From a virus: DNA of 64,000 nt. A program made the position numbers and the translations under genes. Shown in pieces: positions 43,733 through 64,000 of this stretch. The notes below the pieces were generated by a model. It did no database searches. It was given only the letters and a program-made list of their open reading frames with translations, and was not told the DNA's origin. Every line of letters starts with the position of its first letter. The first letter of the stretch is position 1. The stretch is from positions 16,171 to 80,170 of the IMG/VR virus record IMGVR_UViG_3300020020_000001; one strand, 5' to 3'.

Positions 43733-44495
43733 AAGATGCAGCAACCTTTGTTTCATGGTCATCACTCAGCAGTGTTAACAATCAGAGATCTCCTCTGACA
43801 ACATACGGTTGCTGCAAATCTTCCATTTGTTGAAGTTTATGCGTGGACTTTGGCCCTGAGGAGCCACGCTTCCTACTTAAGTACGCTGGCCCGGACGGAA
43901 CCATTGTACTAGGCTAACACACTGTATCAAGCTTAGACACAAAGCGATACAGTGTGTCCTCGCGCTGCGCTCGAAAGGTAAAATGGACAAAAACCCTTGA
44001 GGCGCGCTAAAGGTCTAACAAGTATGGAATTCTCAAATCCCAAGGACCAGAAGACTGTCAGCCCTCTGTCACGTGCCAACGAGAAGAACCGTAGCACGTG
44101 CTCGCGGTCGAGGTCAAGGGTATTCGTTCAATCATCATTCGCGCTGGTCAGAGCGTGATCAAATCGACGAAAGTCAATATGTCCGATATGTCCTCTGCAA
44201 CTTGCAACTGGCAGGTGCAGAACACGTTACTAGTACACTGACTAGTAACATGCACAACATCTGCTAGACGTTCAATGTTAGAGTGATTCGCGTGCTAACT
44301 TCCTCTGCTGACATCATTTCAAGTTGCCCAATAAACTTGTCACGGAGATGCTCCATGACAAATTCCTTGAGATCTTGAAACGGTACCTCAACAAAGAGGT
44401 GACCATCGTCAGCCGGTTCTACCTTATCCTTTGACACCGTGATAAGGACGTTGCCGGAGAAATCACCATTGAAATGGAATCTTACATTCTTAGTA

Positions 44496-44852
44496 CTAAG
44501 AGAGTGCATCTTTGTATTCCTCAACTGTCTCAGCGAACTTGGTAAATTCTTCTATCAACCATTCTGGTACATCAGCTTCGTCACCATCAAGACCATTGCC
44601 AAGGAAAATAACGTTCCCTACAAGGATATCACCACGTGGCCAACCAAGTTTATGTGCAAATTTGGTTGCTACTGTGTTAGGACGAAGTGCTTGTATCTTT
44701 CCTTCTTCATTACAATAGCCATGCCAGTCACTATGTGAGTTTCCACTGCTAAAGACCTCAATGTAACCACCCACAGTAGCCTGTAGCCACTCTAGTGTCA
44801 CGTCGATATGGAATATTGAGGCCATTTCAGCTTCAATAACGAGTACCTTCAT
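44496..44852 (-). CDS. DUF3846-like protein
   Basis: 'L..LQ..VGGYIE', 'CNEEGK...L.PN..AT', 'D.L.G.V...G'. Confidence 0.8.
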   Translation of the reverse strand: MKVLVIEAEMASIFHIDVTLEWLQATVGGYIEVFSSGNSHSDWHGYCNEEGKIQALRPNTVATKFAHKLGWPRGDILVGNVIFLGNGLDGDEADVPEWLIEEFTKFAETVEEYKDALS

Positions 44853-46097
44853 TTTTTCTCCATTTGTTAGTTGTGCAACACGACACTCAATCGAGTTGAG
44901 TGTCATGCAATACAACTAAGCCGGTGCCTTTTCTCTGCGTCTGCGCTTTGGTTTTTCTGGTTTTGGGTCACCGTTTACATAAGTTAGAAAATCTGGATGT
45001 GCTTCGTAACAGGTTTTGTTCACACATGGTGTAATGTGACCATATCGTGTCACTAATTCGTAACAGTTTGGTCTATTCCGTCCATCAGGATGACAAGTAT
45101 TTGGGTGACAGAGTGGTTCCGCTTTGTGACCACGACTGTATCCACCGGGCAAATTACCCATTCTGCGTTGACAGTGGGCACAGCCCATCGTTGCGCCATA
45201 CGTTGTGCCGTTTCCGGCCATTTTGCGGCTTGGCGACTTGTTGTAGTTCATGTACTCTCTTCCAATTATGGTACTGGAATATATGCAGCGGTAACATCAG
45301 TCCAAACTGGTACTGGTATGTTTGATTCAAAAATCTTGACTGCACGTACTCCACCACCAACACGAGCGACTGCCCGCAAACGATTGAAAGCGCTTACTGC
45401 CTCCGCTTCAGGCATTTGTGGTAATTCAGTTGCTACCCAATCATCAGTTGTAACACTGCCGGCCGGAACGCCAACCGGTCCAGATTCATAGGTAACCTTA
45501 AACAGATTAGCCATTCTCCACCTCTGATTCTTCTAGCTCCTTGCTAGGAGCGTTGAAACCTTTACCGGGAGGACATTCTGGACAAGGAGATCCGTCGTAC
45601 CAAGGCTTGTACTGTCTGTGTGGGCAAGCCCAGTCCACCTCTTCTGGTGCGGTACGCAGTTGCCTTATTACTAGAACTGCTACGCCGACTACACCTGCTA
45701 CTGTCGCAGCCAGTATAGCATAACCGAGCGGAGTCTTAGGAATCATGTGCGCAAACTCCATCCTGTGGGCAATCACCAATGTCGCAGCGATCACAGTCAC
45801 AATAACATTCTTCATGGCAGTCATCGAGAAAGATATCGATACCTACGTCCTGTGGGATTGGTTCAGGTCGAAAGATCTTCATCCCAAATACATTCCACTT
45901 CTAATTCGGTCATGTCAAGCAGGATAGCTAACCGATGAATTTCGGTTCGCTTTCGAATCTCCATCTCGCGGAAGTACAGGTTTCGTGTTCCCTTGATGTA
46001 TAATTCTTTCATTTGCTCAACAGTTATCGTTGCCAATTCTACTCCTTCGATCTTAGTTGTGCAACACGGCTCAGGTGCAAGACCTGAACCATGCAAC

Positions 46098-46829
46098 TCA
46101 ACTACCAATCGCACGTCGAGTACTATGCTGCGAGCTAATCCTAGTACCACCGAGGTCAGCACGCTGACCGGCAGAAGTACCAGCACTACGGCCAGCACTA
46201 CTACTAGCACTGAAACTGGTACGTCTATAGCTCAACCGTGGAAAGACAGTGCTAACAAGGTTCTTAACGATTTGCGCCTTGTTGACTAGCACCAATTCCA
46301 TACCACTGCCCTCACTTGCCTTCTTGATATCTTCCTTTGCCCGTTGTGAAGCAACCTTGATGCGAATGATTACCGTACTCACAAAGGCAGAAACAAAGGA
46401 ACCATTGAAGGTTCGACCATGCTCACGCGCAGGCTTGTAGACCTGCGCATTTGCCAAAGCCGTATCAAGTTGCAAGACGAGAGACATGTAGAGCATAAAC
46501 ACGCGCTCAATGTCATCATCAGTACCAAACACACTAACCTTGTTACCTTCGATCGTTACAGCAAAGCAACCAAAGGCGTGGCAAATCGCTTGTAGAAGTG
46601 AGTCTTTCCTATTTGGGTATGTACCAACGATCTTAAAGATACGATGCGAAGCGGTCAATGGCCGCTGCTCTTTAGCAGCGAGCATATCCTGCTCAATGCC
46701 ATGCTTCGTCATCAGATACGTGATCTTGTCAATGATCGAAGCACGTTCGTCTTCTGTCGTAGCTCTGTCTTCGGCCTTAACCATTAGTTTTTCGATGATT
46801 TCAAGCCACTTGTTATTAGGTTCTGTCAT
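46098..46829 (-). CDS. DUF2786-like protein
   Basis: 'I.KL..KAE....T..E......K...LM.KHGI', 'FG...D.ERV..LY.SL..Q', Gly-rich 'G..AG..ADLG'. Confidence 0.75.
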   Translation of the reverse strand: MTEPNNKWLEIIEKLMVKAEDRATTEDERASIIDKITYLMTKHGIEQDMLAAKEQRPLTASHRIFKIVGTYPNRKDSLLQAICHAFGCFAVTIEGNKVSVFGTDDDIERVFMLYMSLVLQLDTALANAQVYKPAREHGRTFNGSFVSAFVSTVIIRIKVASQRAKEDIKKASEGSGMELVLVNKAQIVKNLVSTVFPRLSYRRTSFSASSSAGRSAGTSAGQRADLGGTRISSQHSTRRAIGS

Positions 46830-46897
46830 TTTGTATCACCTCTCCATTTTAGTGGTACAGTACCAAGCTAGTACTAGACTAGCATGATACAACGCCG

Positions 46898-47356
46898 CTA
46901 AGTGAAGTTTAATACTGCGTATTCACCAAAGTGTTGTATTGCTTTGTCGTCATATGCTTTGGCTGCAACCATTTCATTTTCAAACAGACCTATATTTATT
47001 CTTCTTCCGTCAACTTGTATACGAGCAATCCACTTTTTACGATCTTTCCGAAAAACAACACCCTTATATTTAGAAGATCGTCCTGATCTCTTTTGTCGAT
47101 TTGCAGCATTTTGTGATGTTGTTGCCGGTCGAAGATTAGCTCTTGTGTTATCTAGCCCGTCACCATTTACATGATCTACTTGAGCAAATCCAGTTATTAA
47201 CGTATGCATCAACTGTTTTCCATATGTTCCTACACTTCGTCCCGCGTAGAATTTGTTATATCCTTTCTTAGCGTGCCACTTATATTGAACAACCAGGTCG
47301 TAGTCTTCGTCATCTACGATGGCTTGCTGTCCTTGTGTTAGTGGAATAAATCGCAT
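46898..47356 (-). CDS. HNH-AP2 homing endonuclease
   Basis: 'VDH.NGDGLDN.R.NLR.AT..QN..N', 'S.YKGV', 'W.A.I......I.LG.F..E..AA.AYD..A...FGEYA.LNF'. Confidence 0.92.
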   Translation of the reverse strand: MRFIPLTQGQQAIVDDEDYDLVVQYKWHAKKGYNKFYAGRSVGTYGKQLMHTLITGFAQVDHVNGDGLDNTRANLRPATTSQNAANRQKRSGRSSKYKGVVFRKDRKKWIARIQVDGRRINIGLFENEMVAAKAYDDKAIQHFGEYAVLNFT

Positions 47357-50300
47357 CACGGCCTCTTTAGTCAAATTGTACCGCGTCCTGTGGGTTAGCC
47401 CACAGGGCACGATACAATGTCACTAAAAGGCTTTGTATAGTCGATTGGTTAAAATAACCCACTTTGTGGCGTCGTGATGCTTAGTGAGAGCATAAAGATG
47501 TTCTTTTAGAAACCTCAACAAGTCGATTTCCTGAGCATCTGGTGGCATTTCTTCTTTGTCGATCAATTCAATTTCTACAAGGTATTTCATTTACATTCCA
47601 TGTGTTGGACAGTGTTGCGCACCACAAGTGATGACTCCGATTCCAACATCTGCCTCACAGCAAGGTGTGTCACAAGTGCAGATCTCAGTCTCTTGTGGCG
47701 GAAGATCAACACATGCCTGACAGATTTCGTGCTCGCAGTCATCGCATAGCCCATCATCGGCTGCTATATGACCAGTTTTGCTAAGTTTAGCACACGCACA
47801 ACACAGATTACAGAGAGGGAGTCCCATTCGTGCGAACTCTCTATCCTCACAGATGTAACACCCGTTACGATGTACCTTCTGTGTCGTCACTGGAACATTG
47901 TCTAGAAGAAAATACGCAGGATCATTCGGTCTCTGATGCATCCGTGGTGTGCTGTGACTGGTCATTTACCTCATCCTTCGTCGGAGTAGGGTTGTTGAGC
48001 CGATCGCGCGCAGTGACGGCATCATTGATGTTGTCATACTCAGTGTACTTATACTCAGTCTTTTCACCATTCAGTACCGCTTGCCATTCATCGCTATCAA
48101 CAACGCGGAACTTCTTAGTGAGATTGGTGTTACTGAACGGATACAATGCAACATATGACATTATTACTCCTCAAATATGAAACCATAAGTTAGAAACCAC
48201 TTAGCTAGGTAAGCATCACGGAATCTACGTCTACGTTCTAATTCTGCATTACGTAAGTCTCTATAGCGAACTATGTGTAAGTATTTTCTCTTACGTTTGT
48301 TTTCCTTACACCATTGGCCGATCCTGACCATACATGCCCTACATTCAACACTTAGGCCAGGATCGTCCAAATTCACTACCGTTCCTTTTGTTGTGATGGA
48401 TGCTCGCCACGAGAGCGGAGCAGCATTTCTAAACGATCAACTCTAGCTTTCGCTTTGTCGAGTCGTTCTTGTTGTTTAGTGAGTCTTTGTGCCGTCCGGA
48501 ATTTCTCTACAATTACTGGATCGTTACCACACGTGTTGCAAAAGCCTGGTGGTCGACCACGTCGAGCTGGAATTGCATAGACTTCCTGACAGGCATTGCA
48601 AAACAGCATCATGTTGTCATGCTTTTCTGTCATTTTTCATCCATTCGTTTTGTTTGAATGAACAGCACGGCACTCACTATGGGTGAGTGCCATACAGATC
48701 ATTCATCTCTGGGTTGTACTCTCTTTCAGTGGATCCTTTTTGAGGGAAAGACACAATCTCTCAATCTGGTTTAGTCGCTCTTGCGCGGACATGGTTACAT
48801 TCACGGTGATAATGCTTAGAACCTGACTCGCTAGTGTAGCCTTTCCGTCTTCTAAACCGCCATGATAAGTCATGGTACCTTCTTCTCCACACTGTAGATG
48901 CGGATATCAGACAATCTAATTGCCTTCAGCATTCTACGACGCTTGAACCAGCGAGTCCACAAGAACAATGTGGTATTCTTCTTGTCGCGCGTCTCTTCGA
49001 TAATGTCACTAAAAATCTCAACTGCACCATCGATTTTCGTTATTACATATCGAACCGAAGGATCATATTTTATTGGATCACTTTTCATAATACCTCCGGA
49101 ACAAAGGTATAAGTCCAACTATGCCATAGCTTATCAGTTGGTAGATGACCCAAATCATAGCTCGGATTCAGTTTAGCGTGGATCTCTTCACCTTCACGCC
49201 GAAGTGTCCAAACTGCATTCATAAGAAACCACCCACCACGTTCCTCTTGGTTTTTCAGAATGGTTTCTAGTCGCTCGCGCTCGATGCGCTTTTCTACTTC
49301 ACCATACTGGTTATAATGCACGTAGTGCGTAAAATTTTCTGGAGTGGAGGTTTCTGTGTCAGTTTCCTGACGGTCTAAATTATCCACGTTTCATCTGCTT
49401 TCGTGAACACTGAGTGCACGTTCTTGCTTGCACAGTAGCTTTGTTCTTGAAATACTCAAGGTTGCCGGCCGAGTAGTCATCCATACTTACTCGGACGACG
49501 CGCCACGGGCCCCAATTGCGATGAAAGAGAAAATGAATCATTTGTCAATCTCAAACTGCAAAATTGGCTCCTCAATTGTATCAGCAACGAAGGAAACCAT
49601 ATCGTGCCCATCTTCTAGCCAAGCGAGTTGATTCACCATTGCTTCTGTTACAGTTTTGGCTTCATACGCTGCTAGGTCAGTGTCATCAATGTAAAAATGA
49701 CCCTTCAGTGTCACATTTACCTTATGCTTAGCCATTTTTCTCCTTATAGCAACTAATTGAACACTACCACCCTGCCCCGTGGACAGGATGATAGAATTCA
49801 ATCAGGCAGGTACCCAATTTTCATTGGTATTTTCGATATGGTCGGATCGCATCCTAGGATCAACATGCGAGACTACCCGCTCATATCCGAGCTTGATAAT
49901 AAGCCGTCGACGAACTTCGACCTGTACTGGCATACCGGCAGCCTTATCAACTTCGAGTCGGATACCGTGACGTTCCCGCGACTCTTTGCGCATCGCGTTT
50001 GTCTCGCGCACCCACTCTTCGGCTGATGTCAGCCCTGTGGGACCAATGGCAAACACCCGAATAGGTTCCGTGAAATAGAACTTGTACTGCGGGTCGACAT
50101 CAAATGCCGGTTCTCGGTTGAACGCATAGTACTCATACTCATATTCGGCTTTTGTTTTCATTTTGTGTCCTTTGTGTCCGATTTGTTCAGCTAGGTACCT
50201 TATGCGTAAGCGCAAGGTACCTAGATCAACCATCGGCACACTTTCCAGTATATCACGGTTCCGAATAAATTCAAGACGCACCCTGTACCCTGTACTGAGA

Positions 50301-53136
50301 CCCACGAAACCGCTTTTCGGCCGGCAGCGTGCTGCACAGCGGGCTAGTGGGCCATCCTCGCGCCGGTCGTGCGGTGCGCGCGACCAGGCGAGGTGAACGA
50401 CCGTTTAGGTGAACATAGTTGAATCTGGCGTAAATGTTATATCAATATTCGCACTCTCTAAGGAAGCACGAAAATTTCTGAACTTATCGACTGTTGGCAC
50501 AACACCAACACCAATAATTTCGCCATCCATGTATAACTTGTAAGGAACCGTGCCATCTTTAATGTTGTACCTAACGCTCAGAATCATTACGCTTTACCCG
50601 TCCTTTATGCGGTACCTCCGCATATCTGGTAAGACCACCATCAACGATGCGCTTTCGCCTATCTATGCACTTAGCGCCAGGAATAGCAGGACAAACTGGA
50701 CACTGACCATACCAGGACCAATCTGTTCGTCCCCTAATTCGTACCGTCATAGTGCTTTCCCCGCCATTTTAACCACCTTAGTTCTGGATCAGTGAGAATG
50801 TAGATTGCGCCACACTCTTTACAAGTCTTCATATATTCTGAATATTCATAAGAATGCACACCATAAGAACATCCGGTGATATGCGAATCAGGACTTAGCA
50901 AGGCAAGAAGGTGCATCGTCTTTTTGACGTGCTCAGCCCGCTGATTTCTTTTCTTTCTTAGTCTACTAGACATAATCTGCCTCTCTAAGTAAACAGCCCG
51001 ACCCCTGTGGGTTATGCCCACAGGAACCAGACAGATCACTCAGATTTCAATTTCTGCTACTTGCTCAGCGGTCAGGTGACCATACTCAACAATATCTTGG
51101 CGGACGGCTTTTTCAAATTCATCGATGTTGCTGGTGAAATTGTGGTAAACCTTGTCACCGAGCAAATCGTTGAAGCCGAGTACCTCATTGGCTGCATCTT
51201 GAAATAGCATCCAATTGCCATCCTTGTCGACGGCATTCCAAAGAGTTGGCCCACCATCGATAGGCTTGCGCAATCGGTTGGAAAGGCTCAATGCCCATCC
51301 ACCGAAACAATAATACGTGTTGCAAGTCAAGCCATCACCATCAATATCATAGTTGGTCGCCCAACCAAGCTGACTCCAATGAGCCAAATCTTCACGAATA
51401 GCCTTGAAGACAAGATCAACTAGCTCCATGTTCGGCGTCGCGGCTGGTACATTATTTTCCATTTTGTAATCTCCTTTGTTAGTTGTGCAGCACCAAGCAT
51501 TGCCCACAGGCAATGCATGATGCAACGCAACTAGGCTTTTGGTTCCCACCACAATGGTAGAAAACGATCACCTGTGATCGCACTCCTAGTGAGGTATTCA
51601 TCCAATTCTTTGATTAGTTCTACTAGCTTGAACGAATCATTGCCATACTCACCAGTAGTGAAATACAAAACGTTGTCGTTGGAATTATCCACCTTGTACT
51701 TGATAGTGGCAACAAGACCACGAATCCTGGTGAGTGCCAGTGTTGCATCATACATTTTATTCCTCCATTTAGTTGTGCAGCACAACGCTCAGGCTGCCCT
51801 GAACATGATGCAACGCAACTAATCTAGGGCTTGCTTCTTTTGGTGTGCCTGTGCGTATAGTTCTTGGAAAGTCTTAGCCACTAAGTTGACCGCAGCATCT
51901 TGCCTGTGGTCATTTCCTTGCGTAACGATAGCTGACAATAGATCGTCTGGTACCAACACTGATTTGGTAACTGGCCGAATCTTGCCTGGTATCTTGATTG
52001 AGAGATCTACCCGAAACCAAGCTTTAGACATCTTAAAATTCCTTCCATACATTTAGTTGTGCAGCACCATGTCTGTGTTCCCACAGGCATGATGCAACGC
52101 AACCAAGCTTAGTGAATACTACGAAAGTCCTCAAAATTCGCCTTCAACTGCCACTGTTCTGGCAGACCACCACCATTTGACATAATTTCGTCGAATGCTC
52201 TGAATTGCAAAATGAATGCCGCAGTAGCGCGGCCAGCAATGCGCTGGTCATCTGCATTCCAGGCTAACGATAGAAGCTCGCGGAGTCTGGTGAGTCGGTC
52301 TGTTGTAGAGATTTCTTGAACTCTTCGTACTTTTGCAGGTTCGCCTGACGACTGGCCATCTGCTGACTCAATCGACTGGTTTTCTTGGTTTCCACCATTA
52401 TCAACCATTGTACCATGTCTCTTTCTACTCTGACATGTTCATTCCAAAGTTGTGTTGCGTTCCAGCCACTGAGCCCACAGGTGCAGGTCAGAATCTTGCG
52501 AAAGAGTCCTGCCTTCCTACTGTATACATTGTGCTCATAAGCGCTGGTTTTCCAATCATCTGGCACATATGCCATACTTCTCCTAATATAGTTACTGTCC
52601 ATTATTAGTCGAATAGCACGACTGCCGACACTCGAATCGCGTCGGCAATCATACAAAACGGCCAATTAACTGTCCTACTGAGCTTCGTATTCACTCTTGT
52701 TTTTGATCTTGACTTCCTTATCTGGAAGGTCGGCAAGGAAACTTCCGAATCCATCAGTGCGCACTTGCACCTTTTCCAGATCTAACCGACGCTTCTTGAT
52801 TTCTGTATCGCGAAGGTATCCAACAATCTCAGCGTCGCTATTGTCTTCTTGCACCTTTTCGAGGTCGGCCTGCCAATCATACATCTTGACACGCTCGACT
52901 AGCTCGATCACCTCATTGTAATACTCATTTTCATCAGGAATTGCTAGGTTCCTGACTAGAATGTAGAATTCGCGCCGGTCAATTGGACCCTTGATTACCA
53001 TTTTATTGGTTCTCTTTCCGTTTCATTGTTATAGAAACAACACCCTCATTGTGCGCGGTATTATAAATACCGTACAAAATGTCGAGCGCCTCCCGGTACG
53101 GAAGATCTCCCCACAGGGACGCCCGACCTGTCTGCC

Positions 53137-53165
53137 ATTCTACCACTAGGTCATATTTCACGCAA
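53137..53165 (-). promoter_or_regulatory. Sigma70/HrdB-like promoter
   Basis: TTGCGT-17-TAGAAT. Confidence 0.55.
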
Positions 53166-53300
53166 CCCTCCCGACTTTTTGGACTAAGTCCAATACTTGA
53201 GGACTATTAGCCCATACCACGCCTAAGGGGCGAATCGGATATACTCCATTTGCGGAATATGTCCAATTCGCCCCACTATGACATGCTAGCTATACTGCTT

Positions 53301-53600
53301 TTATTGGTTATTTGGGTCTTTCCGTCGATCGGCCCGTTCCTGGTCCTTGCGCAAGCGCTCTAAGTCTTCCTGCCTGCGCCGTTGGTTTTCCCGTTCAGCC
53401 TCTTGACGTCGAGCCGTTTCGTCATCTTTGTCTGACATTTATTGTAATACCTTTCAATTCTTCAATTATTTCGTACTATTTACTTGTTCTTCTTTTCATT
53501 CGCTCGACGTTCGCGCAGCCTCATTCGCTCGGCGGGTTTCTAGTGCTTTCTGCGCCGAATCACGTGCTGCGCGTGCTCTGTTTTCGTCTTTCTCTGCCAT
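53301..53600 (-). CDS. Two short charged ORFs (53301-53438, 53496-53600) with a duplicated leader
   Basis: Shared upstream AGAATTGAAAGGTATTACAATAA-ATG. Confidence 0.6.
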
Positions 53601-53796
53601 TTATTGTAATACCTTTCAATTCTTTCAATATGTCCTTTATTTCGTAGTCTGACTTTTTGTCCGTTTTTGTTATGTCAGACAATCTGTCAACGTCATAAGA
53701 CTTGGGACGTCGAGTTGTGCAACTTGCGCACTACCCGTACCTAGTTCCCGTAGTCGAATGGATACGATTATTTGGGGAGATTCCAGGTAGTGCTAG

Positions 53797-53857
53797 TTCC
53801 CATGGCCCGACTCGAACGGGCAGCCCTTCCACTCTTTCGCAAATAAGTGGCATGGGA
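53797..53857 (-). ncRNA. D-armless tRNA-like element
   Basis: 7-bp UCCCAUG/CAUGGGA plus T arm GCCCG-UUCGAGU-CGGGC plus one internal hairpin. Confidence 0.6.
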
Positions 53858-54040
53858 TCCTTCCGGATTCCGTCTCATGCTTTACGGGCATGATGGTACT
53901 ACCGGTAGTTTTGCGCAGAATACCATCACTGGCTTTTCACAACTCTACAGTTGTCCAGATGTATGTATTCTGCAAGTGAGCCAGGCTAGCTCACGCTAGC
54001 CCGGCCCTAGCCATTTTGATTTCAGACACTTGACCAAGTG

Positions 54041-54084
54041 TCTTATCTTATCTTATCTTATCTTATCTTATCCTGTCCTGTCCT
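54041..54084. repeat. Pentamer microsatellite (TCTTA)6(TCCTG)2
   Basis: Read directly from the sequence. Confidence 0.9.
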
Positions 54085-54117
54085 TAGAGTTTTTGTGAGT
54101 AACTAGAATCTCTTCTG

Positions 54118-54876
54118 CTACTCGTTGTCTTCGGTCGTCTCAGCCTTTGAACCAGTCTTCTTAGAAGACTTTTCGGCTTCCTTCGCTGCCTTCTCGGCAT
54201 TGTACTGGTCAGTCGCTTCCTGCACGGCCAGCTCAACGGTGTTTTCCTCGACCTTTGCATCGGAGAGGAAACCCTTGTACTTGTCGACAAGCTTGGCAGC
54301 CTGATCAATGCGCTCGATCCACATCTTACTGCGGTCGTTCGCGTAGAGCGACTTCTTTACCGCTTCCGCCAGTAGAGTCAGGTTGTCCTCAGGGGTCCGC
54401 GAGCTTGCACGCTGCGAACCAGATCCCCGAGTAGCAAGGCGCTCGCGCCTGGACTCCCACCACGAAGTGGCAAGGTCGGTCAGCACGTACACTCTCGCCT
54501 CATTGTCATCGGGACCCTGCACCAAAACGTGCGGAATCCGATCACGCTGAGCCTTAACGGTCTGGTACACGCTCTGCGGAACGACATACTCAGTACCGTC
54601 GAGGTCTTCCCCTGCCATAAACTTCGCCTTCATGAGAGTCTTCGTCATGAAAGCCGCGAATTCCGTGATGGACATAGCGCCATCCGGAACCTGCGCAACG
54701 GTCTCCACAGGAGACTCAGACTCACTCTCTCCACTGTTGTCAGTAGAACTGGCGTTCTCTACGTCCGCAGACTCGGCAGCCAAGGTTGCTGGCTGGCCTT
54801 CAGAAGTCTCTGAGACAGTACCATCGACCGAATCGCCAGTCTGGAGGTCGTCAAAGAGATCAACGTTTGAAGTCAT
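54118..54876 (-). CDS. Hypothetical protein with acidic termini
   Basis: 252-aa ORF with AAGGA SD and its own promoter. Confidence 0.6.
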   Translation of the reverse strand: MTSNVDLFDDLQTGDSVDGTVSETSEGQPATLAAESADVENASSTDNSGESESESPVETVAQVPDGAMSITEFAAFMTKTLMKAKFMAGEDLDGTEYVVPQSVYQTVKAQRDRIPHVLVQGPDDNEARVYVLTDLATSWWESRRERLATRGSGSQRASSRTPEDNLTLLAEAVKKSLYANDRSKMWIERIDQAAKLVDKYKGFLSDAKVEENTVELAVQEATDQYNAEKAAKEAEKSSKKTGSKAETTEDNE

Positions 54877-54934
54877 TTTATGATCCTTTCGTGATCATAG
54901 TTTACTCTATGGTTTTGTTTTCTTAGCTACATCC

Positions 54935-54963
54935 ATCTTACCTGGTAATTTGACTTTCGTCAA
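54935..54963 (-). promoter_or_regulatory. Sigma70/HrdB-like promoter
   Basis: TTGACG-17-TAAGAT. Confidence 0.6.
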
Positions 54964-55242
54964 GTCCATTTGAGGGATTACCAAGATTTTCACCAGGTCC
55001 GAAGAGGGCTTCACGATCTTGATAATCCCACAGATAGACTCGCTCGAATTATATTTCTAGTTGATCTTGACTTGTCTGACCTTGTTCTTCGTGCCCTTTG
55101 CCGTCGAGCCGTGAATCTTGCCTGTGGGTTGTGCTCCGTGCCTCGCTTACCTCTCTACTATAGCACAACTCCCACAGGGCAGCAAACTATTCCAACGATG
55201 AATCCTAGTTTTTACTTGATCTTGGTTCTAGGTTGATCTTGC

Positions 55243-56208
55243 TTACAGCACACCCAGCCGACGGAGGTCGCGTACGGTGATCTCACCAGTAGTGGACACA
55301 CGTACCATATGCTTGGGTCGACCTCGGTGGCCAGTGATGTACGCCTTCAAATCGACCAAACCATACCTTTCTAGCTGAACTAGGTCATTTCTGGCTTTCT
55401 GACCAAACATCGCAGTAGGGACGAAAGCGAGTCGAAGCGGCGCACGCTCCAACTCTTGGTTCATTTCTACCGACATTTGGGTACTGCTGTGGATATCAAA
55501 CATTTTAGCCTGGAATGCCTGTGGTGTGTTCATTGCTTCACGTTGGGTGCCAATGTCCACAATCATGTTAGCTATCTGATTTGGACGTATAACACCAATA
55601 TTTTCTAAATCGTCAGGATCTGGTGCTTCAGCCGTTTTGACCGATCTAAACTTTTCGTCTAGTTCTTCACGGTTTAGCTGTTCTGCCTCTTCTGTGGCTT
55701 TTAGTAGCATTTCAAGCATTTTGAGCTGTCTGACCGAAAGCGAACCGCTTAGGAAACAATGTTCCGCTTTGGTCCAAAATTCCGATTCCTGCGCTTTGGT
55801 AGTGCTTAGGATAGTAGTAACATCATTGTCTGTATCCCAAGAGGTCACGCGGATACCGCGCTCGAATTCCTCCCGATCGGCAGACATAAACATTTCGCGC
55901 AATTGCTCTGCTGTCGTAAGTCCGAATGGTGTTAGTTCGCCATCACTATCGGCTAGTTCTGGACTATATGTGCGACTTGCTGCGAGTTTGCACCTTTGGT
56001 TCCAATTGTGTGTCTTTGGGCTGTGAAATGCCATAAGTCTAGCTTCGAGCATATACCCATCAGCACGTCGAGACTCGACTACACCTAGCTTGTGAGTGAG
56101 CCATACGGCTAGTTCCATCGACATGTTAGGAACTTGTGATTTGATGGGCTCACGCTCAAAAGTAGGTGCATATATTGTTACTGATCGACTTGTCGAAATA
56201 ACTGCCAT
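55243..56208 (-). CDS. Hypothetical protein, possible C-terminal winged helix
   Basis: 321-aa ORF; 'L..LE.YGLV......HRGRP' pattern. Confidence 0.5.
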   Translation of the reverse strand: MAVISTSRSVTIYAPTFEREPIKSQVPNMSMELAVWLTHKLGVVESRRADGYMLEARLMAFHSPKTHNWNQRCKLAASRTYSPELADSDGELTPFGLTTAEQLREMFMSADREEFERGIRVTSWDTDNDVTTILSTTKAQESEFWTKAEHCFLSGSLSVRQLKMLEMLLKATEEAEQLNREELDEKFRSVKTAEAPDPDDLENIGVIRPNQIANMIVDIGTQREAMNTPQAFQAKMFDIHSSTQMSVEMNQELERAPLRLAFVPTAMFGQKARNDLVQLERYGLVDLKAYITGHRGRPKHMVRVSTTGEITVRDLRRLGVL

Positions 56209-56282
56209 GTTACTCTCCGTGTCGGTATGGTTACTGTGGGTTTTGTTTGGCTACATCTTGTTGAGATGGTGACCTTGCCGAC

Positions 56283-56311
56283 ACATTAATCGTGATGTGC
56301 AGTCGTGTCAA
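56283..56311 (-). promoter_or_regulatory. Sigma70/HrdB-like promoter
   Basis: TTGACA-17-TAATGT. Confidence 0.6.
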
Positions 56312-59245
56312 GAGACACGGAGGTACGTTCATTTTATTTGTGTGGTGTTGATGTGTGAGGGAATTTTTATTCCTTGACATCCTTGTTGGTTGTTGGATAT
56401 CGCATTTTTTGGTGAAAATGAGTCAGGTCAGTATTTTACACGGAATTTTTGGTTATTATCGACCCTATATCGTTGATCATCATTGCGTAGTGCTTGGTGA
56501 GCGCTTGGACCGTCGAGTGTGGACGGTAAAGGGTAAAGGAATATTCGACGTTGGATTTTTAGGAAAGTTAACTAACGATAGGCGAAATGTCCGAATTGCC
56601 AGGAGGAAATGTCCGAAATGTCAATGCCATTCGAACAAAGGTTTGAATGGCTTATTGATTAATAACTTAAAGAGCACTACCCCCCGTTCCAAACGATATT
56701 GAGGTTTTGTGTATGTGGTGGGTTGTGGTGGACTGACCAGGAATGTGTTGGTTTGGGGGAAGTGTCGGATGTGTCCGATTTGGTGTCCCACGATGTGGCT
56801 GATCATGTATAGAGGGGGGGTCTAGCCGTGCTGAAGTATCTATAGATCAATAAGCCAATAAATACTCCGAACGCATGTTCCCACCCCCATATTGATTGGC
56901 TTCGATTGGGATTATTGAAGTTTATCGATGTCCGACTTTTTGGGAAAAGCCCAATTTTTGAGGACTTCATAGGGTAGACATAAAAATATGGTGATATAGG
57001 ACCCTAACTGGCTGTTTGGGTCCTATTCACCTATCTTATGGTGCTATGAGCAGGTATGTCCGGTTTCGCCCCAAAGGAAGTTATATCCTGCCAATCGCGT
57101 AGATGTGGGCGGTCCGTACCTGGATAGACGAGATTCGGTAGCTGCATCCGCAATTACGGCGTTCGTGCCGATTGCGTAGATGAGGCCGATTGTATTCGAT
57201 CGTCCCATTCCGGCCTGCTTTTTGCCGAATGTGTGCTTTCGGCGCTTTCCGGCTTTCTTGGTGGTATACGGCATTGGTGGATTTTGAGGCTGAATGTCCT
57301 GGGTGTCCATAAATGTCCGTTTCTCTTTTTGATCTTGTTTGGTGAGTGCTTAGGTTGCTAGGTGAGAGCGCGTAGGATGCGCGTTCCGCCCTGGCACTTC
57401 AATTGTAACGCGTTTTGGTGCCTATTGCCACTCTGTATAGGGTGGCTATGTGATCTTGGCTTAGAATCGATCTGAGGGGGTTATGGCAGTAGTTGATCTT
57501 GTAGATCGTAAGGTCCAACGGTTCAAGATCAAACTGACGCGTCAGTAAGTCTGAAGCATAGATGATCATGAATTGGGGATCTTGAGGGTTTGATGTGACA
57601 TGGCCAGGTATGGGCTGATTTTTGTGGAATCAGCCCATACGTGACTAAATCAGATCAAATTACCGAATTGCGCCGTTTGGAGCGCTCTGCGGTAATAGTC
57701 CGATTCGAGTGGATCGCCCTCATTCGAGGTGAATGTGGCGATTCCGATTGGTTCGTCCGAATCGTCCTCATTGTACTCATCGTCCAGATCGTCCTGATCT
57801 TCCGAATCGTCGTAATCGTCCAGATCGTCCGAGTAGTCGTATCCGTACGGATCGTACTGTTCGTCCGAATCGTCCATTCTGTCCTCGTAGTCTGCTTCGA
57901 GGTGTGCGTCCTCATACATGTGCGTTTGTCTCCCTTGTCCGGGTTTGTCCGAATTTAGGTGGTGCATAGCACGATATATGGTGTGTTTTCCATATATCGC
58001 ACTAAACATGACCTAAGGGTAGATCTACCTACCAATCAGGTATTGGGTAACTTGTAGAATGAATTGGCTTCATTACTGGTGATTCGCTACAATAAATGAT
58101 CCTTTGTCCAGATTGACTCAGAATGCCCCATGTGTGCACTTCTGGCCACTCTCCGCACGCATCGCACTTATTGCGGCTTATGTCCAGTTGCAGCCAATCA
58201 ATCCGCCTTATCACCTTTGGCAGATATTCTCCACTTGGTCTGGATTGAGCCATGTTTGCCATCCTTTCGGATAGTTTATCCCTTTAGTACCGTTTGTCCG
58301 ATTTTCGCCCTGTTGATCTTGTGAGCGAGCAGGAAGCGAGCGTGACTGTCGGAATTGCTCCATTTAGCGCAATTGTCCAGAAAGTTATTCCACTTCCGAA
58401 TTTTCGCGATAGTCAGCTTTGTCCGGTATTGCATTGTTTGTCCTTCCTATGTGGACATAGCAGCGTATTTCCCTCGTTGAAAGGAAACACGCCACTATGA
58501 GCACATATCAGAGGAATGTCACGAAGGTACTCATTGCGTGAACTGTCCCATTTGAATCGGTTCCGATCAAATGCAACCATCCTCCCCGATTGCCCTCGAA
58601 GATGAGAATTGCGATGAGACCAGCTGGTAGTTCCAGAATTGTGTGCTTACAGAACACTAGGAACGTATGTGTCCTGGTTTTGATGACTTTTGGTGCATTG
58701 TGAACAATGTCCGTTTTGGGAGGTGGTGCGTTGTGCTTACCCATTTTGATTGACTTCCTTCCATTTAGACGGACATGACCGGATATGGGACTGTTTGGGT
58801 ACCATATCCGATTATGTGCGACTAACGGGTTTCGTCAGCCTGTGACTCCATTGTCGTCTCTCGGATGAGATCGGACAGATTGCGCTCATTGCCGTGATTG
58901 TCGTGGACGTGCGGAATGTGTCCCTGTGGGTCCATTGTGAGGTCCGCGAGGGAAAGTCCGAATTCCATCAATGCGTCCGCATAACAGCCATGTACGGTCT
59001 TTTGGAGGGTATCGGCCCACTCGACCAGTTTGTGGTCATTGCGAGCATTGCCCACCTTGCGCAACATGTCCAGATCACGATCGATTGTGGACAGATTGTG
59101 CGCAACCGCCTGAATCATGGCGCTACGCGTGGCATCTTCGTGAATCTCCATAATGCACACGGTTTGCTTCCTTTCGTCCGGTTTAGGGCTTAAGGGGCCC
59201 ATGGCACGATTCAGACCGGTAAAGCCTGAATCGCACCAAACGTCC

Positions 59246-59842
59246 CTAAGCTGTCAACATGTCCCTTTCGCGGGGGTCTGTCAGGGGTGATGGTGGAATG
59301 AATGGAGTTGTGACCTTTGCCGGAGTTTTCGCTTTCGGGCTCGATGTCCGTTTTGCGGGGACTTGGGCAGCTTTCGCTGCTTTCGCCGGAGATGTCCGCT
59401 TTGCCGGCTCTGCCTTGACTGTCGCTATTGCTGACGTAGGCACCTTTTCGACCAGAATCACCGCAGAAATCACACTTGGTACATCTACGATGAATGGGTA
59501 AGTTATGGCAATAAGCTGGGGTTGTCCGTTTGCTACCGCTTCAGTGAACAAATGGTAGCCAGACATCCCGAAAGCCACTGCCGTTACTATACCCAACCCA
59601 ACGTAGACAAGTACCTTCATATAACCCTTACGGGGATTCAGGTAACTAATCAGGTGAATCGTCAGAAACAGGACAATCACGGGCATAGCCGAAAAAGCGA
59701 TCGGTTCCGCCGCAATCCGCCCAGAACGGACATTAAACCAAATTGAGAAAAGTCCGGTAAGTACCAAAGTCCAGGTACTCCACCTTCGTCCCTTTTGGAA
59801 CCTAGTGAGAGGCTTGCGCTCTTTTTTTGAGAAGAGTGCCAT
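59246..59842 (-). CDS. DUF2637-like membrane protein
   Basis: Four TM segments, 'AF..S..HL...A...G......YP..VD', basic tail. Confidence 0.7.
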   Translation of the reverse strand: MALFSKKERKPLTRFQKGRRWSTWTLVLTGLFSIWFNVRSGRIAAEPIAFSAMPVIVLFLTIHLISYLNPRKGYMKVLVYVGLGIVTAVAFGMSGYHLFTEAVANGQPQLIAITYPFIVDVPSVISAVILVEKVPTSAIATVKAEPAKRTSPAKAAKAAQVPAKRTSSPKAKTPAKVTTPFIPPSPLTDPRERDMLTA

Positions 59843-60431
59843 GTTTTGGCTCCTTTCAGGTAGGGAAAGCACAGGATGTGCCATAGGAGTGCATTGTCCG
59901 GTTTGAGCGTCCTCATCCTTACCGTCACCTATGTACCGGTGGCGGCGACAATGCACCCTTAAAGCACATCCTGCACTTTTTCTACCTGAAAGTGCAGTAA
60001 AGTCACTATTTAGGTAAGAATGTCCGATTTGGCCGATTTTCCGCTTTCGCGTGGCTCCGACCCTGCCTCTCCAGTATAGCTCGCACAATACCGGCATATT
60101 ACAATAATCGGACATTCTGAACTGTCATCTAGCCGACAGTCCCAAACTGGAGGTTTGCGAGCAATATCACCAAAGTGATGATTGCGACCAACATGCACAG
60201 AATCGTGACGATATCCGTGCCTGTGACTGGTTTGCCCACTCTGTCCTGCTTGTCCATTTTTGTCCCTTCTTCACCGGTATATCCGGCTATGTCAGCCATG
60301 CCCGATTTGTCCCCACTTGTGAGACAATTCGCGCAAAACTCACAAAACCGGACATGTCCGACTTTTTGAGATAAAGCCAATACTTTAGGTATACAATAGC
60401 CCCTCCCTGGGCAAAGTCGGACCTATGCTGC

Positions 60432-63047
60432 ATATCAGGATATAGATGGACACACCCCATTTGTCCGGGTTTAGTAGAATTGTCCGATTTGCCAGATCCA
60501 TCCCAGTTGGTATGGACCTGTCTCGGTTTCACACGTTACGTGGTGGTATCTGCACTTTTCCCACCATTTGACCGAAACGAACGGTTCGTCCGATTCTGGC
60601 GAAAAGGGGTCTTTGTCCAGCTTGGTCACAATTCCCACGCATTGTCCGTCTTCGCAGTCTTCGCCCACTTCGTCCGGGTTGTACCACTTGAAGATGGTTC
60701 CTACCCTTATGCCCATTTTGTCCTCATTCCTGTGGGTTTGAGGGGGTGTGCCCATTTATAGCCTGATATACCCGTTTTAGCCCTGCATGTCCGTTTTGGA
60801 TGATTAGTGGAGTTCGGTAACTTCGACCTTGATGTCCGTTATCTCCAGATTGGACTGTTCGTCCAAAATGTCCATAACGTCCTGATTCTGCTCAATGTCG
60901 AATTCGAGTGAACTTACCGGAATGTCTGTTTCGCCCATTTCGGCCAGATAGTCCGTCATGTCCACATCGTACGCAATTGATACGGTTCGAACCACTCGCA
61001 CCCTTTGACCAGGTACGAGCGATAGATCCCGATGCGCCCGAGTAATATCCATTTGTCCTCCTTAGTCCGGATTGGCCGGACATGCAGAGTTAGAACGGGT
61101 ATATCATGGTATAGTAGCTTTAGACCGGCATGTCCGTTTTGAGGCTAAAGGGTGTCTAGCTGCGCTTTGAACTCATTGACCAGATTCTCCTCATTTGTCG
61201 CGTTGATGCCAAATGCGGCATGTGTCGCCAAATGCTCGATATCTGCGAAAATGTGCTCTCCGAGCGCCTTTGCCCTGATAGCGGCCAAAATGCGTACTTC
61301 CGCCGGAAAGTCCTCATTGCCCGTTTCGGCCATAATGACCGCTACGGTGTACTCCGTCACCAATTGCTGGATATGGGCTGCAATGTCGGATCCGTTAGCA
61401 ATGTCCATTTTGCTCTCCTTTGATAGGTTTGAGTGGACATGCCGGTTTAGAGCTACTATACCATGGTTTTACCTGCTTTAGACGCATATGTCCGAAAGTG
61501 TCCAGTTAGTCTAGATCGCGCCGATTTTCCACGGTTCGACCTCTATGACCGTTTCGCCCACAACGCCCGTTACGCGCCATTCGTCGTCTAAGACGCATTC
61601 GCGCATAATGACCGTATTGCCGTAATTGGGCAATCTGACCACAATGTACAGTTTGTCCTCATTGTCCGGATTGAGGAGAAACTCCTCATATCCAACGATT
61701 GTCCCGAGTTCTACCCGAAAGTCGTCTTTGTCCAAATAAGACGTAATGCCCATTTCGTGCTCCTTTGTCCGAAGTGTCCGGACATATGCGTTTAGAGCAG
61801 GTAAAACCTGAATTATCCCGAGTTAGGAGGATATGTCCGATTTGAGTGGTTAGTCTACTTTGTCCGCCATGTCCCGTCTTGGTAGTCGCAGTCCGTGATG
61901 CCCGAATCCTCCGTGATTGCGTGACATACGGCTTTTGAGTGGCTATTTGCCACTGTGACCCATATGTCCACAACCACCAGAATCGCCAGAATCACGAGCA
62001 TTGCTACCAATGCCTGGTATGTGCGTTTCATGCAGAAACCGCCCTTTCGCCTCGAATGTCCGCCATGCGCATTTCGTCTCGCTTTGTCCAAATTGCCCTA
62101 CTTGTGGCCAAAGCGTCCGTGTCGTCCGTTACGCCACATGCGACTACGTTTGTGTAGATTTCCTCCATTGTGTCGGAAATGTCCAAAACGGCCGCTATGA
62201 GCGATACGACTGACTTGTGTACTTTGCCTTCTGGGTAGGGGTTTGGCCAGATTTGAGCCCAAATGTCCATTTTGGTCTCCCATGTCCGTTAAGTCGGACA
62301 TATCCTCTTAGCCCGGGATAATCCGGCTTTGTCCACGTACGCCCCCCTCTGTCACTGAATGTCCGCTTTTGTCGGAAATGTGATGAAATTCACCGACTTT
62401 TTGCGAAATGTCCAATTTATGAGGTGTGCATACGCATACGCCACCATAAGGGGATAAATCCCCTCATGCGTGCTAAGCACCCTTTGTCGGGTATGTCCAA
62501 AATGGCTGATTTGTCCGATTAGTCCTCTATGTCGAGATTGTCCGCATCGCCCCATTCGCGCCATTCGCCTCGAATGCCCAAATTGAGCAACATGTCCGCT
62601 CTGTCCATTTCGTCCTCAAGGTCCCTTTCGTCAGAAAAGTCCTCATCGTCCGAAATCTCCCAATTTGCCCACTTTCTGGCGTCTTCGACCACATTGGGAT
62701 CAATGTCCATTTTGTCCTCCTTTGGTAGGTATGTCGGACATACCCGATAAGGAGTGCTTAGTCCGCATTGTCGCTCAAGTCCCTTCTGTCCGGCATGTCG
62801 GTAATGCCCTACTTGTCGGCTTTGAGGACTATGTCCTCAATGTCCGTTTCAGGCACCATGTCCACTATGCCGTAACTGTCCCCTCTGCGGAATATGTCCC
62901 GAATCTCTGCATTGTCCGGTTTGGCCGGATTGCCGAAATTGTCCTCATCTGTCTCGATAAGAACCCAAATGGTCGTTTTCGCCATAATGCCTCCTTTGTC
63001 CGTTTTGGCCGGTTTGTCCGACATGCCGGATAGGAGAGACTTGAGCG
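60432..63047. repeat. Chain of seven long-range inverted-repeat pairs, each enclosing one or two small genes
   Basis: 26-31 bp arms; coordinates given in findings. Confidence 0.9.
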
Positions 63048-63059
63048 CTTTGCCCTATC

Positions 63060-63860
63060 TATCGCTATTGAGTTGATAAGGAACGATTTGGTGGCATTTC
63101 ACCCGCTACCTCCGGTTTGTCCGAAGTGTCCGGTTTGCCGCCTATCTGCTACTTCCAGTCTACTCCGCCCGGATTATGCCCATATAGTAGGGCAAAGGCG
63201 ACAAATCGGGCATATGAGGCATAATTCGGCCCTGCTATATGGGCACAAAAGAGGACATTTCGGACATGTCGTTTTGTGATTTGGGAGGTTTCAGGACAAA
63301 ACGGACATATGCCCCATAACGAGGGCAAAATGTCCGTTATGCCGGAATATACCACCACATATGGTACAAATCGGACATGATCATGGCACACATATGCCCC
63401 TATATGGGCATAAAAGGGACATAACGGACTACCACAAACCCCCACAAAACGGACATATTCGGAGAGTCCAGACATTTTAGGACAAAACCGGACAAACCAG
63501 GGCAGCGATATGCCCCATATGTCCTTTTGTCATTCGGACATGCGGGTGCATAACCGACATATACCATATGTCCGAATGACAAAACGACAAATCGGGCATT
63601 TCCCCCATACACCCACATATCCGACATACACCCATATGTCCGCCCTGTCCCACCATGCCCGATATGTCCCTTATGCACCATGTGCACCCTATGTCCCATA
63701 TGTCCCACTATGCACCATATAACAGGATATGTCCCCTATGTCCGTTATGCCCTCATTTTATATACCCACATATGCCCATATTATGGGGCAATTTGGACAT
63801 TTTATAACGAAAGTAACTATATTATAACAAAAAGGAAAAATTGGACATTTTGGCAGGTCC
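63060..63860. repeat. Dense non-coding array of ATATG(T/C)CC / GG(A/G)CATAT motifs
   Basis: Dozens of copies in both orientations; no credible ORF. Confidence 0.8.
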
Positions 63861-64000
63861 TACACGAATCGGTGTGTATTTTTGATGTCAGAAAGTTGAC
63901 ATGTTAATATTTTAAAGAAACGGAAAGTAGTGTTGGAAATCAAACAGTAGACATAGCCCATATCCAGTCGTACTCTGTTCTTGAGGTCTCAGCGCAGGGA

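Follow-up and report, generated by a model that had tools for sequence, protein, structure and literature searches.

Long-range stems enclosing the small genes of a soil phage operon: a conserved paired structure and a possible set of RNase III excision sites

The virus record IMGVR_UViG_3300020020_000001 of IMG/VR is a genome of 80,170 bp with direct terminal repeats (DTR), in which 127 nucleotides (nt) are exact. The stretch of DNA analysed here (the window; 64,000 nt, bases 16171-80170 of the record) contains, at 1-3.6 kb from the right genome end, a chain of inverted repeats whose arms enclose small genes one after another. The structural genes of this phage are encoded on the plus strand in the left 25 kb of the genome and the remainder is transcribed leftwards; the leftward operon beside the right genome end, to which the chain belongs, is probably an early, host-takeover operon. 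The seven arm pairs reported in the initial annotation were all found at the positions it had given, and an eighth member with the same geometry encloses no gene. The features are listed below in leftward order, as they would follow one another along the messenger RNA (mRNA), with window coordinates and protein lengths in amino acids (aa).

63018..63047, minus strand: 5' arm of stem 7, the first stem of the chain, with compensatory changes relative to its homologues in the related contigs G001, G002 and L053
62809..62985, minus strand: stem-7 gene, 58 aa (MAKTT...), with Shine-Dalgarno (SD) sequence AAAGGAGG
62772..62801, minus strand: 3' arm of stem 7
62736..62764, minus strand: 5' arm of stem 6
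62519..62710, minus strand: stem-6 gene, 63 aa, an acidic protein with Asp at each third residue, made of 9-nt GGACA units
62470..62498, minus strand: 3' arm of stem 6
62294..62324, minus strand: 5' arm of stem 5
61855..62270, minus strand: the two stem-5 genes, 62028-62270 (80 aa) and 61855-62031 (a membrane protein of 58 aa)
61810..61840, minus strand: 3' arm of stem 5
61779..61808, minus strand: 5' arm of stem 4
61511..61753, minus strand: stem-4 gene, 80 aa
61465..61494, minus strand: 3' arm of stem 4
61435..61465, minus strand: 5' arm of stem 3
61145..61408, minus strand: stem-3 gene, 87 aa
61105..61135, minus strand: 3' arm of stem 3
61077..61106, minus strand: 5' arm of stem 2
60804..61052, minus strand: stem-2 gene, 82 aa
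60764..60793, minus strand: 3' arm of stem 2
60743..60769, minus strand: 5' arm of stem 1, a variant with no AUGUCC end and with its mismatches 4 bp apart
60471..60716, minus strand: stem-1 gene, 81 aa from the SD-led start MGIRVG...
60432..60458, minus strand: 3' arm of stem 1
59853..59992, minus strand: an 'empty slot' (arms 59853-59898/59947-59992) with U.U, 2 bp, A.C and 12 bp ending in AUUGUC, in which the outer helix is longer and the loop measures only 48 nt

In a motif-free scan of the whole genome (arms of at least 24 nt, at least 80% complementary and 60-1500 nt apart) seven long-range inverted repeats were detected, every one of them inside 59853-63047; the same scan, applied as a control to 307 kb of unrelated viral loci, returned 5. 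Each stem encloses one or two small genes, as had been proposed, with a single SD-led open reading frame (ORF) in each pair except pair 5, which holds two joined through an ATGA overlap. All enclosed ORFs of the source phage lie on the minus strand, encode 58-87 aa and have AAAGGAG(G) ahead of them. In the related genome G001 the counterpart of the second stem-5 gene has a stem of its own, and stem 1 has a homologue in G002 (L009 9016-9048/9368-9400). Between stems 6 and 5 there is an ORF-less gap of 150 nt (62323-62470) with a small GC hairpin (~62445-62465), which may be the boundary of two transcription units.

For relatives of the chain, IMG/VR was searched with one protein and scanned with two DNA patterns. 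Daisy chains of the same design were found in eight further contigs (G001, G002, L037, L039, L053, L054, L056 and L058), G001 (81.0 kb) and G002 (75.8 kb) being complete DTR genomes, and the dataset used below consists of 68 stems from nine contigs (the source phage and its eight relatives), with three complete genomes (G000-G002). Matches to the DNA pattern GGAGGACAAAATGGACAT were mostly due to chance, L016 being the single true relative, and a search with the 87-aa protein of stem 3 found no relatives. The region was unmatched in a blastn comparison with the INPHARED phages, and Arthrobacter phage Wollypog, a cultured relative, does not carry such repeats. The search of 56000-64000 against Rfam produced sub-threshold miRNA-hairpin noise and nothing at gathering score.

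The stems are tandemly repeated 7-13 times per array. Successive pairs mostly abut, in agreement with the initial annotation, lying within -1 to +2 nt of each other at 34 of 59 junctions across the relatives. The medians over the stems are a leader of 26 nt, an ORF of 76 aa, a trailer of 12 nt and a loop of 274 nt (range 173-457 nt), and the loop contains the SD sequence, the ORF and its stop codon. Folding of a 1091-nt transcript with RNAfold recovered three abutting stems in both the minimum free energy and the centroid structures, and the stem-7 cassette (62765-63054, minus strand) gave a folding z-score of -11.3. The mean free energy of the duplexes is -43.5 kcal/mol, and that of the inner 12 bp above position 0 is -20.5 kcal/mol.

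Neither sigma-70-like promoters (9 found, 7.2 +/- 3.0 expected) nor intrinsic terminators were enriched between the genes, a result that is consistent with a polycistronic RNA without being proof of it. When the sequences preceding the first stem were aligned for four genomes, conserved blocks were apparent and no recognisable promoter. The possibility that the arms themselves are promoters, with GGACA as the -35 element and the TATA-like outer part as the -10 element, was considered and rejected on account of the same lack of enrichment and of the fact that the positions that would form the 'spacer' covary with the partner arm.

The fixed mismatch geometry described for six of the seven pairs is present in pairs 2-7, in which, on the mRNA-sense strand, C.A and A.C are separated by 2 bp and followed by 12 bp up to AUGUC(C/G); the plus strand has U:G and G:U at these two positions. 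Over the 68 stems the helix is a symmetric element of 30 bp (13 + 1 + 2 + 1 + 13, the single positions being the mismatches A.C and C.A) with the inner end AUGUCC/GGACAU, and at the centre both strands read 5'-C-N-N-A-3', with consensus CUAA. The stems were anchored on the last base of TGTCN in the 5' arm, and the invariance of positions 2-5, which follows by construction, was given no weight. Positions 0-12 and 17-29 are paired, as are positions 14-15 in 67/68 stems, and pairing falls to chance level at positions -1 and 30, evidencing sharp boundaries at 0 and 29. Position 13 is A.C in 50/68 stems, and U.U or a Watson-Crick pair in the others; position 16 is C.A in 47/68. Both mismatches are present in 39 of the 68 stems and at least one in 62, and none is purine-purine. 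The layout deduced from the first 25 stems (A.C at position 13 in 21, C.A at position 16 in 19) agrees with that from 43 further stems of six other contigs (29 and 28, respectively, with U.U as the chief alternative). Conservation in relatives, on which the initial annotation had made its interpretation depend, is observed across at least nine contigs.

The first stems of four genomes are homologous, and among them the central 2 bp covary (CU/AG, UU/AA, AU/AU) and the flanking mismatches are kept; because the central pairs change in concert while the mismatches beside them persist, the latter are maintained by selection and are not products of decay. Perfect Watson-Crick stems, with U..G in place of C..A in the 5' arm, also occur in standard arrays (reverse complement of L017 2809-2840/3112-3143, in G001; L054; L056), which makes them natural controls for what the mismatches do.

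All four types of Watson-Crick pairs are found at most helix positions, and 98.3% of the variable positions are paired, against 55.1 +/- 1.6% when partner arms were shuffled (2000 shuffles, the highest of which reached 60.9%). With the two fixed positions set aside, the mRNA strand has 59 G:U and 10 A.C (binomial p = 1.4e-9), a count in which the kinder scoring of G:U by the scan may have introduced a slight bias and to which a transcription-linked C-to-T bias may add, although neither is a plausible source of a 6 to 1 excess. The remaining mismatches are, as had been noted, G-U on the mRNA strand, and since G:U far exceeds A.C there, the sense strand is the strand that folds. Covariation and the G:U bias together show that the stems are base-paired in the mRNA-sense strand and that this pairing is under selection. 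From sequence alone, RNA and sense-strand single-stranded DNA are indistinguishable; RNA is favoured because the stems bracket the translation units tightly.

The interpretation that we favour, with a probability of about 45%, is that the stems are excision sites for a host enzyme of the RNase III type and yield end-clamped monocistronic mRNAs. We infer that the operon would be transcribed into a polycistronic RNA in which each cistron (SD sequence, ORF and stop codon) is looped out by the pairing of its ~30-nt 5' arm with the 30-nt 3' arm. A dimeric host RNase III would bind on the dyad and cleave each strand at the centre (5'-CNN^A-3', with a stagger that spans the central 2 bp), and the products would be monocistronic mRNAs clamped at both ends by the GC-rich inner helix of 13 bp. 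Since a single unpaired nt would be left at the 5' end and a tail of 3 nt at the 3' end, such molecules would be resistant to exonucleases that need free ends. The outer half-arms would be lost as junction pieces of ~30 nt, and the mismatches may set the cutting register and/or ease the separation of the two halves.

This proposal draws on what is known of the substrates of the enzyme. The idealised RNase III substrate is two-fold symmetric about the midpoint of two cuts that have a 2-bp stagger, and its distal boxes lie ~11 bp away (PMC3867540, Nicholson review), and in Bacillus subtilis RNase III cuts long-range mRNA duplexes of 10-36 bp with arms up to 505 nt apart (PMC11780869). The symmetry of the stems matches such a substrate, and the 2-bp spacing is consistent with its stagger. 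Bacterial class 1 RNase III, whose cuts leave 2-nt 3' overhangs, requires a helix of about two turns (at least 20-22 bp), and the 68 stems offer 30 positions; the distance expected of the distal boxes is likewise found, with 13 bp on either side of the mismatch-2 bp-mismatch centre. RNase III (PF14622), proteins with a double-stranded RNA-binding domain (dsRBD; PF00035) and RtcB (PF01139) were not found in the complete genomes G000-G002; as the phages encode none of these, a host enzyme is implied. The additional suggestion that the released mRNAs could be circularised is left without support by the lack of RtcB in these genomes. The ends produced by RNase III are not joinable by RtcB.

Several observations weigh against RNase III excision. 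Mapped sites of B. subtilis and Escherichia coli are >90% paired around the cuts (>90% at -2/+2 in B. subtilis; PMC11780869), and in most of the stems the nucleotides flanking the paired central 2 bp (positions 13 and 16) are mismatched, a difference whose bearing depends on the exact place of the cut. Mismatches in the target site can restrict or alter cleavage (PMC3867540), and those of the stems could equally be anti-cleavage marks. They are also not obligatory, given that 6/68 stems are fully paired at both positions. The AUGUCC end, moreover, belongs to a wider lattice of GGACA motifs (described below) whose reader might be the real ligand.

The main rival to RNase III excision is that the stems stay intact as clamps or insulators, a proposal that we regard as unlikely although it is the best placed of the alternatives. 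Each cistron would then be a closed loop, shielded from end-dependent decay, with its ribosome-binding site isolated from its neighbours and its stop codon near its own SD sequence for ribosome recycling (the stem brings the two within ~40 nt of each other), and the C.A/A.C mismatches would weaken or kink the helix, thereby keeping RNase III off or letting helicases or ribosomes open it. The structural evidence for this proposal is identical to that for excision, the pairing normally seen beside known cuts and the perturbing effect of target-site mismatches (PMC11780869; PMC3867540) speak in its favour, and the perfect segments have just 13 bp each. However, a 2-bp spacing placed precisely on the dyad of the 30-bp helix corresponds to the RNase III stagger. 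Moreover, weakening a helix needs neither fixed positions nor fixed identity, yet C.A occupies both sites in the 39 stems mentioned above and purine-purine mismatches are lacking. Fully paired stems are present in the same arrays, and two 1x1 mismatches would not be expected to stop an A-form helix of 30 bp from binding RNase III.

The lattice extends well beyond the stems. The density of TGTCC in the plus strand, which is GGACA when read as mRNA, starts at ~2 per 2 kb and climbs over the last 8 kb of the genome through 9, 18 and 27 to 41 per 2 kb. Sense-strand GGACA, with the consensus CAAAnCGGACAWW, occurs 466 times within the 33.5 kb that make up the early regions of the nine contigs (56000-64000 of the window in minus-strand sense, together with L009, L017, L037, L039, L053, L054, L056 and L058). 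The distances between GGACA-like motifs are almost exclusively 9 or 10 nt and sums of these, with the following counts.

Distance of 9 nt: 131
Distance of 10 nt: 50
Distances of 11-17 nt: at most 3 each
Distances of 18, 19 and 20 nt: 61, 53 and 31, respectively
Distances of 21-26 nt: at most 3 each

The lattice passes through ORFs, leaders and arms alike, and the conserved AUGUCC end of the stems is one inverted lattice unit. Within ORFs the same-phase distances modulo 9 are distributed as 246 (0), 115 (3) and 40 (6), and in the 68 enclosed ORFs the Asp-Asp spacing is enriched three- to four-fold at lags 3, 6, 9 and 12. The lattice forces an Asp (GAC) at each third residue of some early proteins, such as that encoded at 62519-62710 (minus strand), and this periodicity is a striking constraint at the nucleic acid level that overrides protein sequence. 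The exact complement of AUGUCCG of the 5' arm occurs in the leader of 26/68 stems (11 in controls) at lattice spacings, and the local alternative hairpin that it could form with the GGACA of the leader was treated as a by-product of the lattice.

Among known motifs, Spo0A, LexA (Cheo) and DnaA boxes and Chi sites were compared with GGACA/TGTCC and none fits. The 9/10-nt step equals the length of the RNA-DNA hybrid of RNA polymerase, and a G followed at 10 nt by Y-GG is similar to the consensus of elemental pausing, a coincidence offered as an idea only. The EndoA site UACAUA (PMC11780869) does not fit either. In the ORF-poor segment 63050-63800, GGACAT is on the plus strand at ~63250-63610 and is flipped back at 63620-63760; this segment also holds iterons of type ATATGCCCCATA and a 35-nt palindrome (63507-63541/63568-63602), and its possible roles include those of an origin, of a packaging site and of a cluster of promoters.

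The AUGUCC/GGACAU end and the 9/10-nt lattice imply a periodic, sequence-specific reader, and this speaks for a second alternative, in which an early protein of the phage or a host protein other than RNase III binds the C.A/A.C helix and/or the lattice and controls translation, protects the RNA during host shut-off or modifies the mismatched bases. Room for such a factor exists, as ~9/10 of the proteins encoded in this region could be assigned to no family. However, no candidate protein emerged, no match resembling a dsRBD or a deaminase was detected among the scanned proteins and the idea is reached purely by exclusion; we hold it to be improbable, clearly more so than intact clamps.

The comparison of gene content across relatives, which the initial annotation had called for, revealed homologous enclosed proteins in 67 stem pairs and similar arms in 22, with both in only 2, and arms that are 80-97% identical were found to enclose interiors whose alignment does not exceed chance level. 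On this comparison the stems are independent of their cargo, the arms being conserved slots in which the enclosed genes turn over. An independent soil sample of 2025 (run X7) contains a relative that is ~90-95% identical in the shared segments, in which several early cassettes are replaced or missing with respect to 59000-64000 of the window; judged from these contigs, it shows fast turnover of cargo in the wild. In this relative stem 3 encloses a different gene, the breakpoints of the replacement coinciding with the inner ends of the arms (61140/61435). The stem-1 gene has likewise been replaced, but here the breakpoints lie to the inside of the arms by 8 nt (60466) and 26 nt (60717), and 24 nt stand in place of the inner part of the empty-slot hairpin. 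Cassette 4 (61464-61808) is wholly missing together with its arms; its breakpoints fall on the outer ends of the arms (61463/61809) and show a 2-nt microhomology. Going by these joints, the arms are clearly boundaries for the exchange of genes and of whole cassettes.

These findings could also come from a DNA-level cassette system, in which the arms pair in single-stranded DNA and act as structure-specific recombination sites similar to integron attC; the uncoupling of arms and cargo, the near-identical arms around unrelated interiors, the breakpoints at arm ends and the direct orientation of the central CUAA on both arms all agree with it. On the other hand, tyrosine recombinases (PF00589), serine recombinases and HUH Y1 transposases (PF01797) are absent from the three complete genomes, inversion or circle joints were not seen in the X7 contigs, each arm pair is unique with a common recombination core of only 4 nt, and the lengths of leaders and trailers are tightly fixed around the translation signals. 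Ordinary homologous recombination in conserved arms would suffice for the gene swaps, and hairpin-promoted slippage for the precise loss of a cassette. That no recombinase was detected makes a system dedicated to recombination unlikely, and the DNA-level role put forward in the initial annotation as the alternative, which is not the primary function on this evidence (no integrase, resolvase or HUH transposase, no inversion joints), is the least probable of the three.

Gene-enclosing stem chains are not described in the full-text literature, Rfam or the phage database that were searched, nor is the GGACA lattice in the full-text literature. If RNase III is the reader, and only on that condition, the stems would be a new variant on RNase III-type sites. 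They recall the processing sites of T7 (R0.3-R1.3) and of Bacillus phage SP82, whose early mRNA is processed by RNase III (Panganiban & Whiteley 1983, as cited in PMC4838370), in that double-stranded elements lie between the cistrons of a phage early operon and are proposed to give separate, end-structured mRNAs by means of a host enzyme. In contrast to the sites in T7 and SP82, which are local intergenic hairpins often with an internal loop that results in single-strand cuts, the strands of the present stems are 173-457 nt apart and enclose a gene, the helix is symmetric and the arms are unique to each pair, so that the stems do not have the form of local intercistronic hairpins. Downstream of the chain, a second family of hairpins, local in form, is found between the genes of 44208-59247 (minus strand), with arms of 23-32 nt, loops of 4-12 nt and a central mismatch patch; several of these start with UUAG, end with CUAA and resemble classical RNase III sites of the T7 type.

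The closest architectural match is provided by the stems of ribosomal RNA (rRNA) operons (16S, 23S), where the flanks pair over a long range and enclose and excise the product; pairing of the flanks across the whole product is found here as well. Unlike rRNA stems, those of the phage have mRNA as cargo, abut in tandem arrays of 7-13 and carry a fixed central mismatch pair, and we know of no such pair in rRNA stems. The duplexes of B. subtilis are comparable in length (10-36 bp) and span (up to 505 nt) and are cut with a 2-bp stagger (PMC11780869), but they are scattered, idiosyncratic sites of decay with paired cut positions and do not form a standardised module that brackets cistrons. The bulge-helix-bulge motif of archaeal rRNA stems, which is read by a dimeric endonuclease, also combines symmetric helix defects with enclosure of a gene; it differs in having 3-nt bulges 4 bp apart and ligatable ends, where the phage stems have 1x1 mismatches 2 bp apart, and the gene content of the phage is bacterial and lacks RtcB, so the stems are not of this type.

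With integron attC sites the stems share a definition by fold and not by sequence, a structure folded from one strand, conserved unpaired bases and swappable gene cassettes, whereas attC is a local hairpin of 57-141 nt placed after the ORF, with R/L boxes, and requires IntI; here the arms enclose the ORF, and the tyrosine recombinase family of IntI (PF00589) is absent from the three complete genomes. Of the HUH Y1 transposase and sub-terminal imperfect hairpins that define IS200/IS605 elements, the transposase is likewise lacking (PF01797 absent). As in the PeSL cassettes of T4-type phages, small early genes occupy a plastic region and shuffle at conserved structured linkers. A PeSL consists of one repeated promoter plus a local stem-loop, while each slot here has a long-range arm pair of its own.

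Regarding the remainder of the genome, the recognisable proteins include a RepB-primase/DUF3987 protein, a SNF2 helicase, a PD-(D/E)XK nuclease, a Fic protein and an NlpC/P60-LysM endolysin. A family A DNA polymerase with an N-terminal domain of the uracil-DNA-glycosylase superfamily is encoded as a single ORF of 767 aa (11077-13380, minus strand), and a full Ro60 protein (TROVE plus vWA) is encoded at 35270-36934 (minus strand). The small proteins enclosed by the stems have no match to any PHROG of known function. The closest cultured phages infect Arthrobacter, Microbacterium, Micrococcus and Mycobacterium, with terminase identities of at most 36%, the nearest cellular relatives of the endolysin belong to Actinomycetota, and the public sequencing runs that contain the phage are all soil metagenomes (DNA contigs), with no RNA run among them. 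The host is probably a Gram-positive soil bacterium, possibly an actinobacterium, though the evidence, which comes from the relatives of the terminase, the capsid and the endolysin, is weak.

Should the proposed cutting of the stems be correct, rRNA-style excision stems with a conserved mismatch mark at the cut site would be in use for all the mRNAs of one operon, to our knowledge the first case of this kind in a virus. The 68 stems would then constitute natural isogenic substrates to study the choice of register by RNase III, probably an actinobacterial enzyme, and the module could serve as a compact, cargo-independent insulator and stabiliser for synthetic operons. A broader and rather doubtful reading, which takes the stems and the lattice together, is that of a standardised 'expression slot' that excises and clamps any gene plugged into it, with the lattice read by a second, periodic factor; this would represent a new operon architecture at the RNA level. 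The pattern of slots and cargo is one in which host-takeover genes are exchanged and their expression context is kept constant, and under the slot reading such genes would be freely swappable between slots and between phages.

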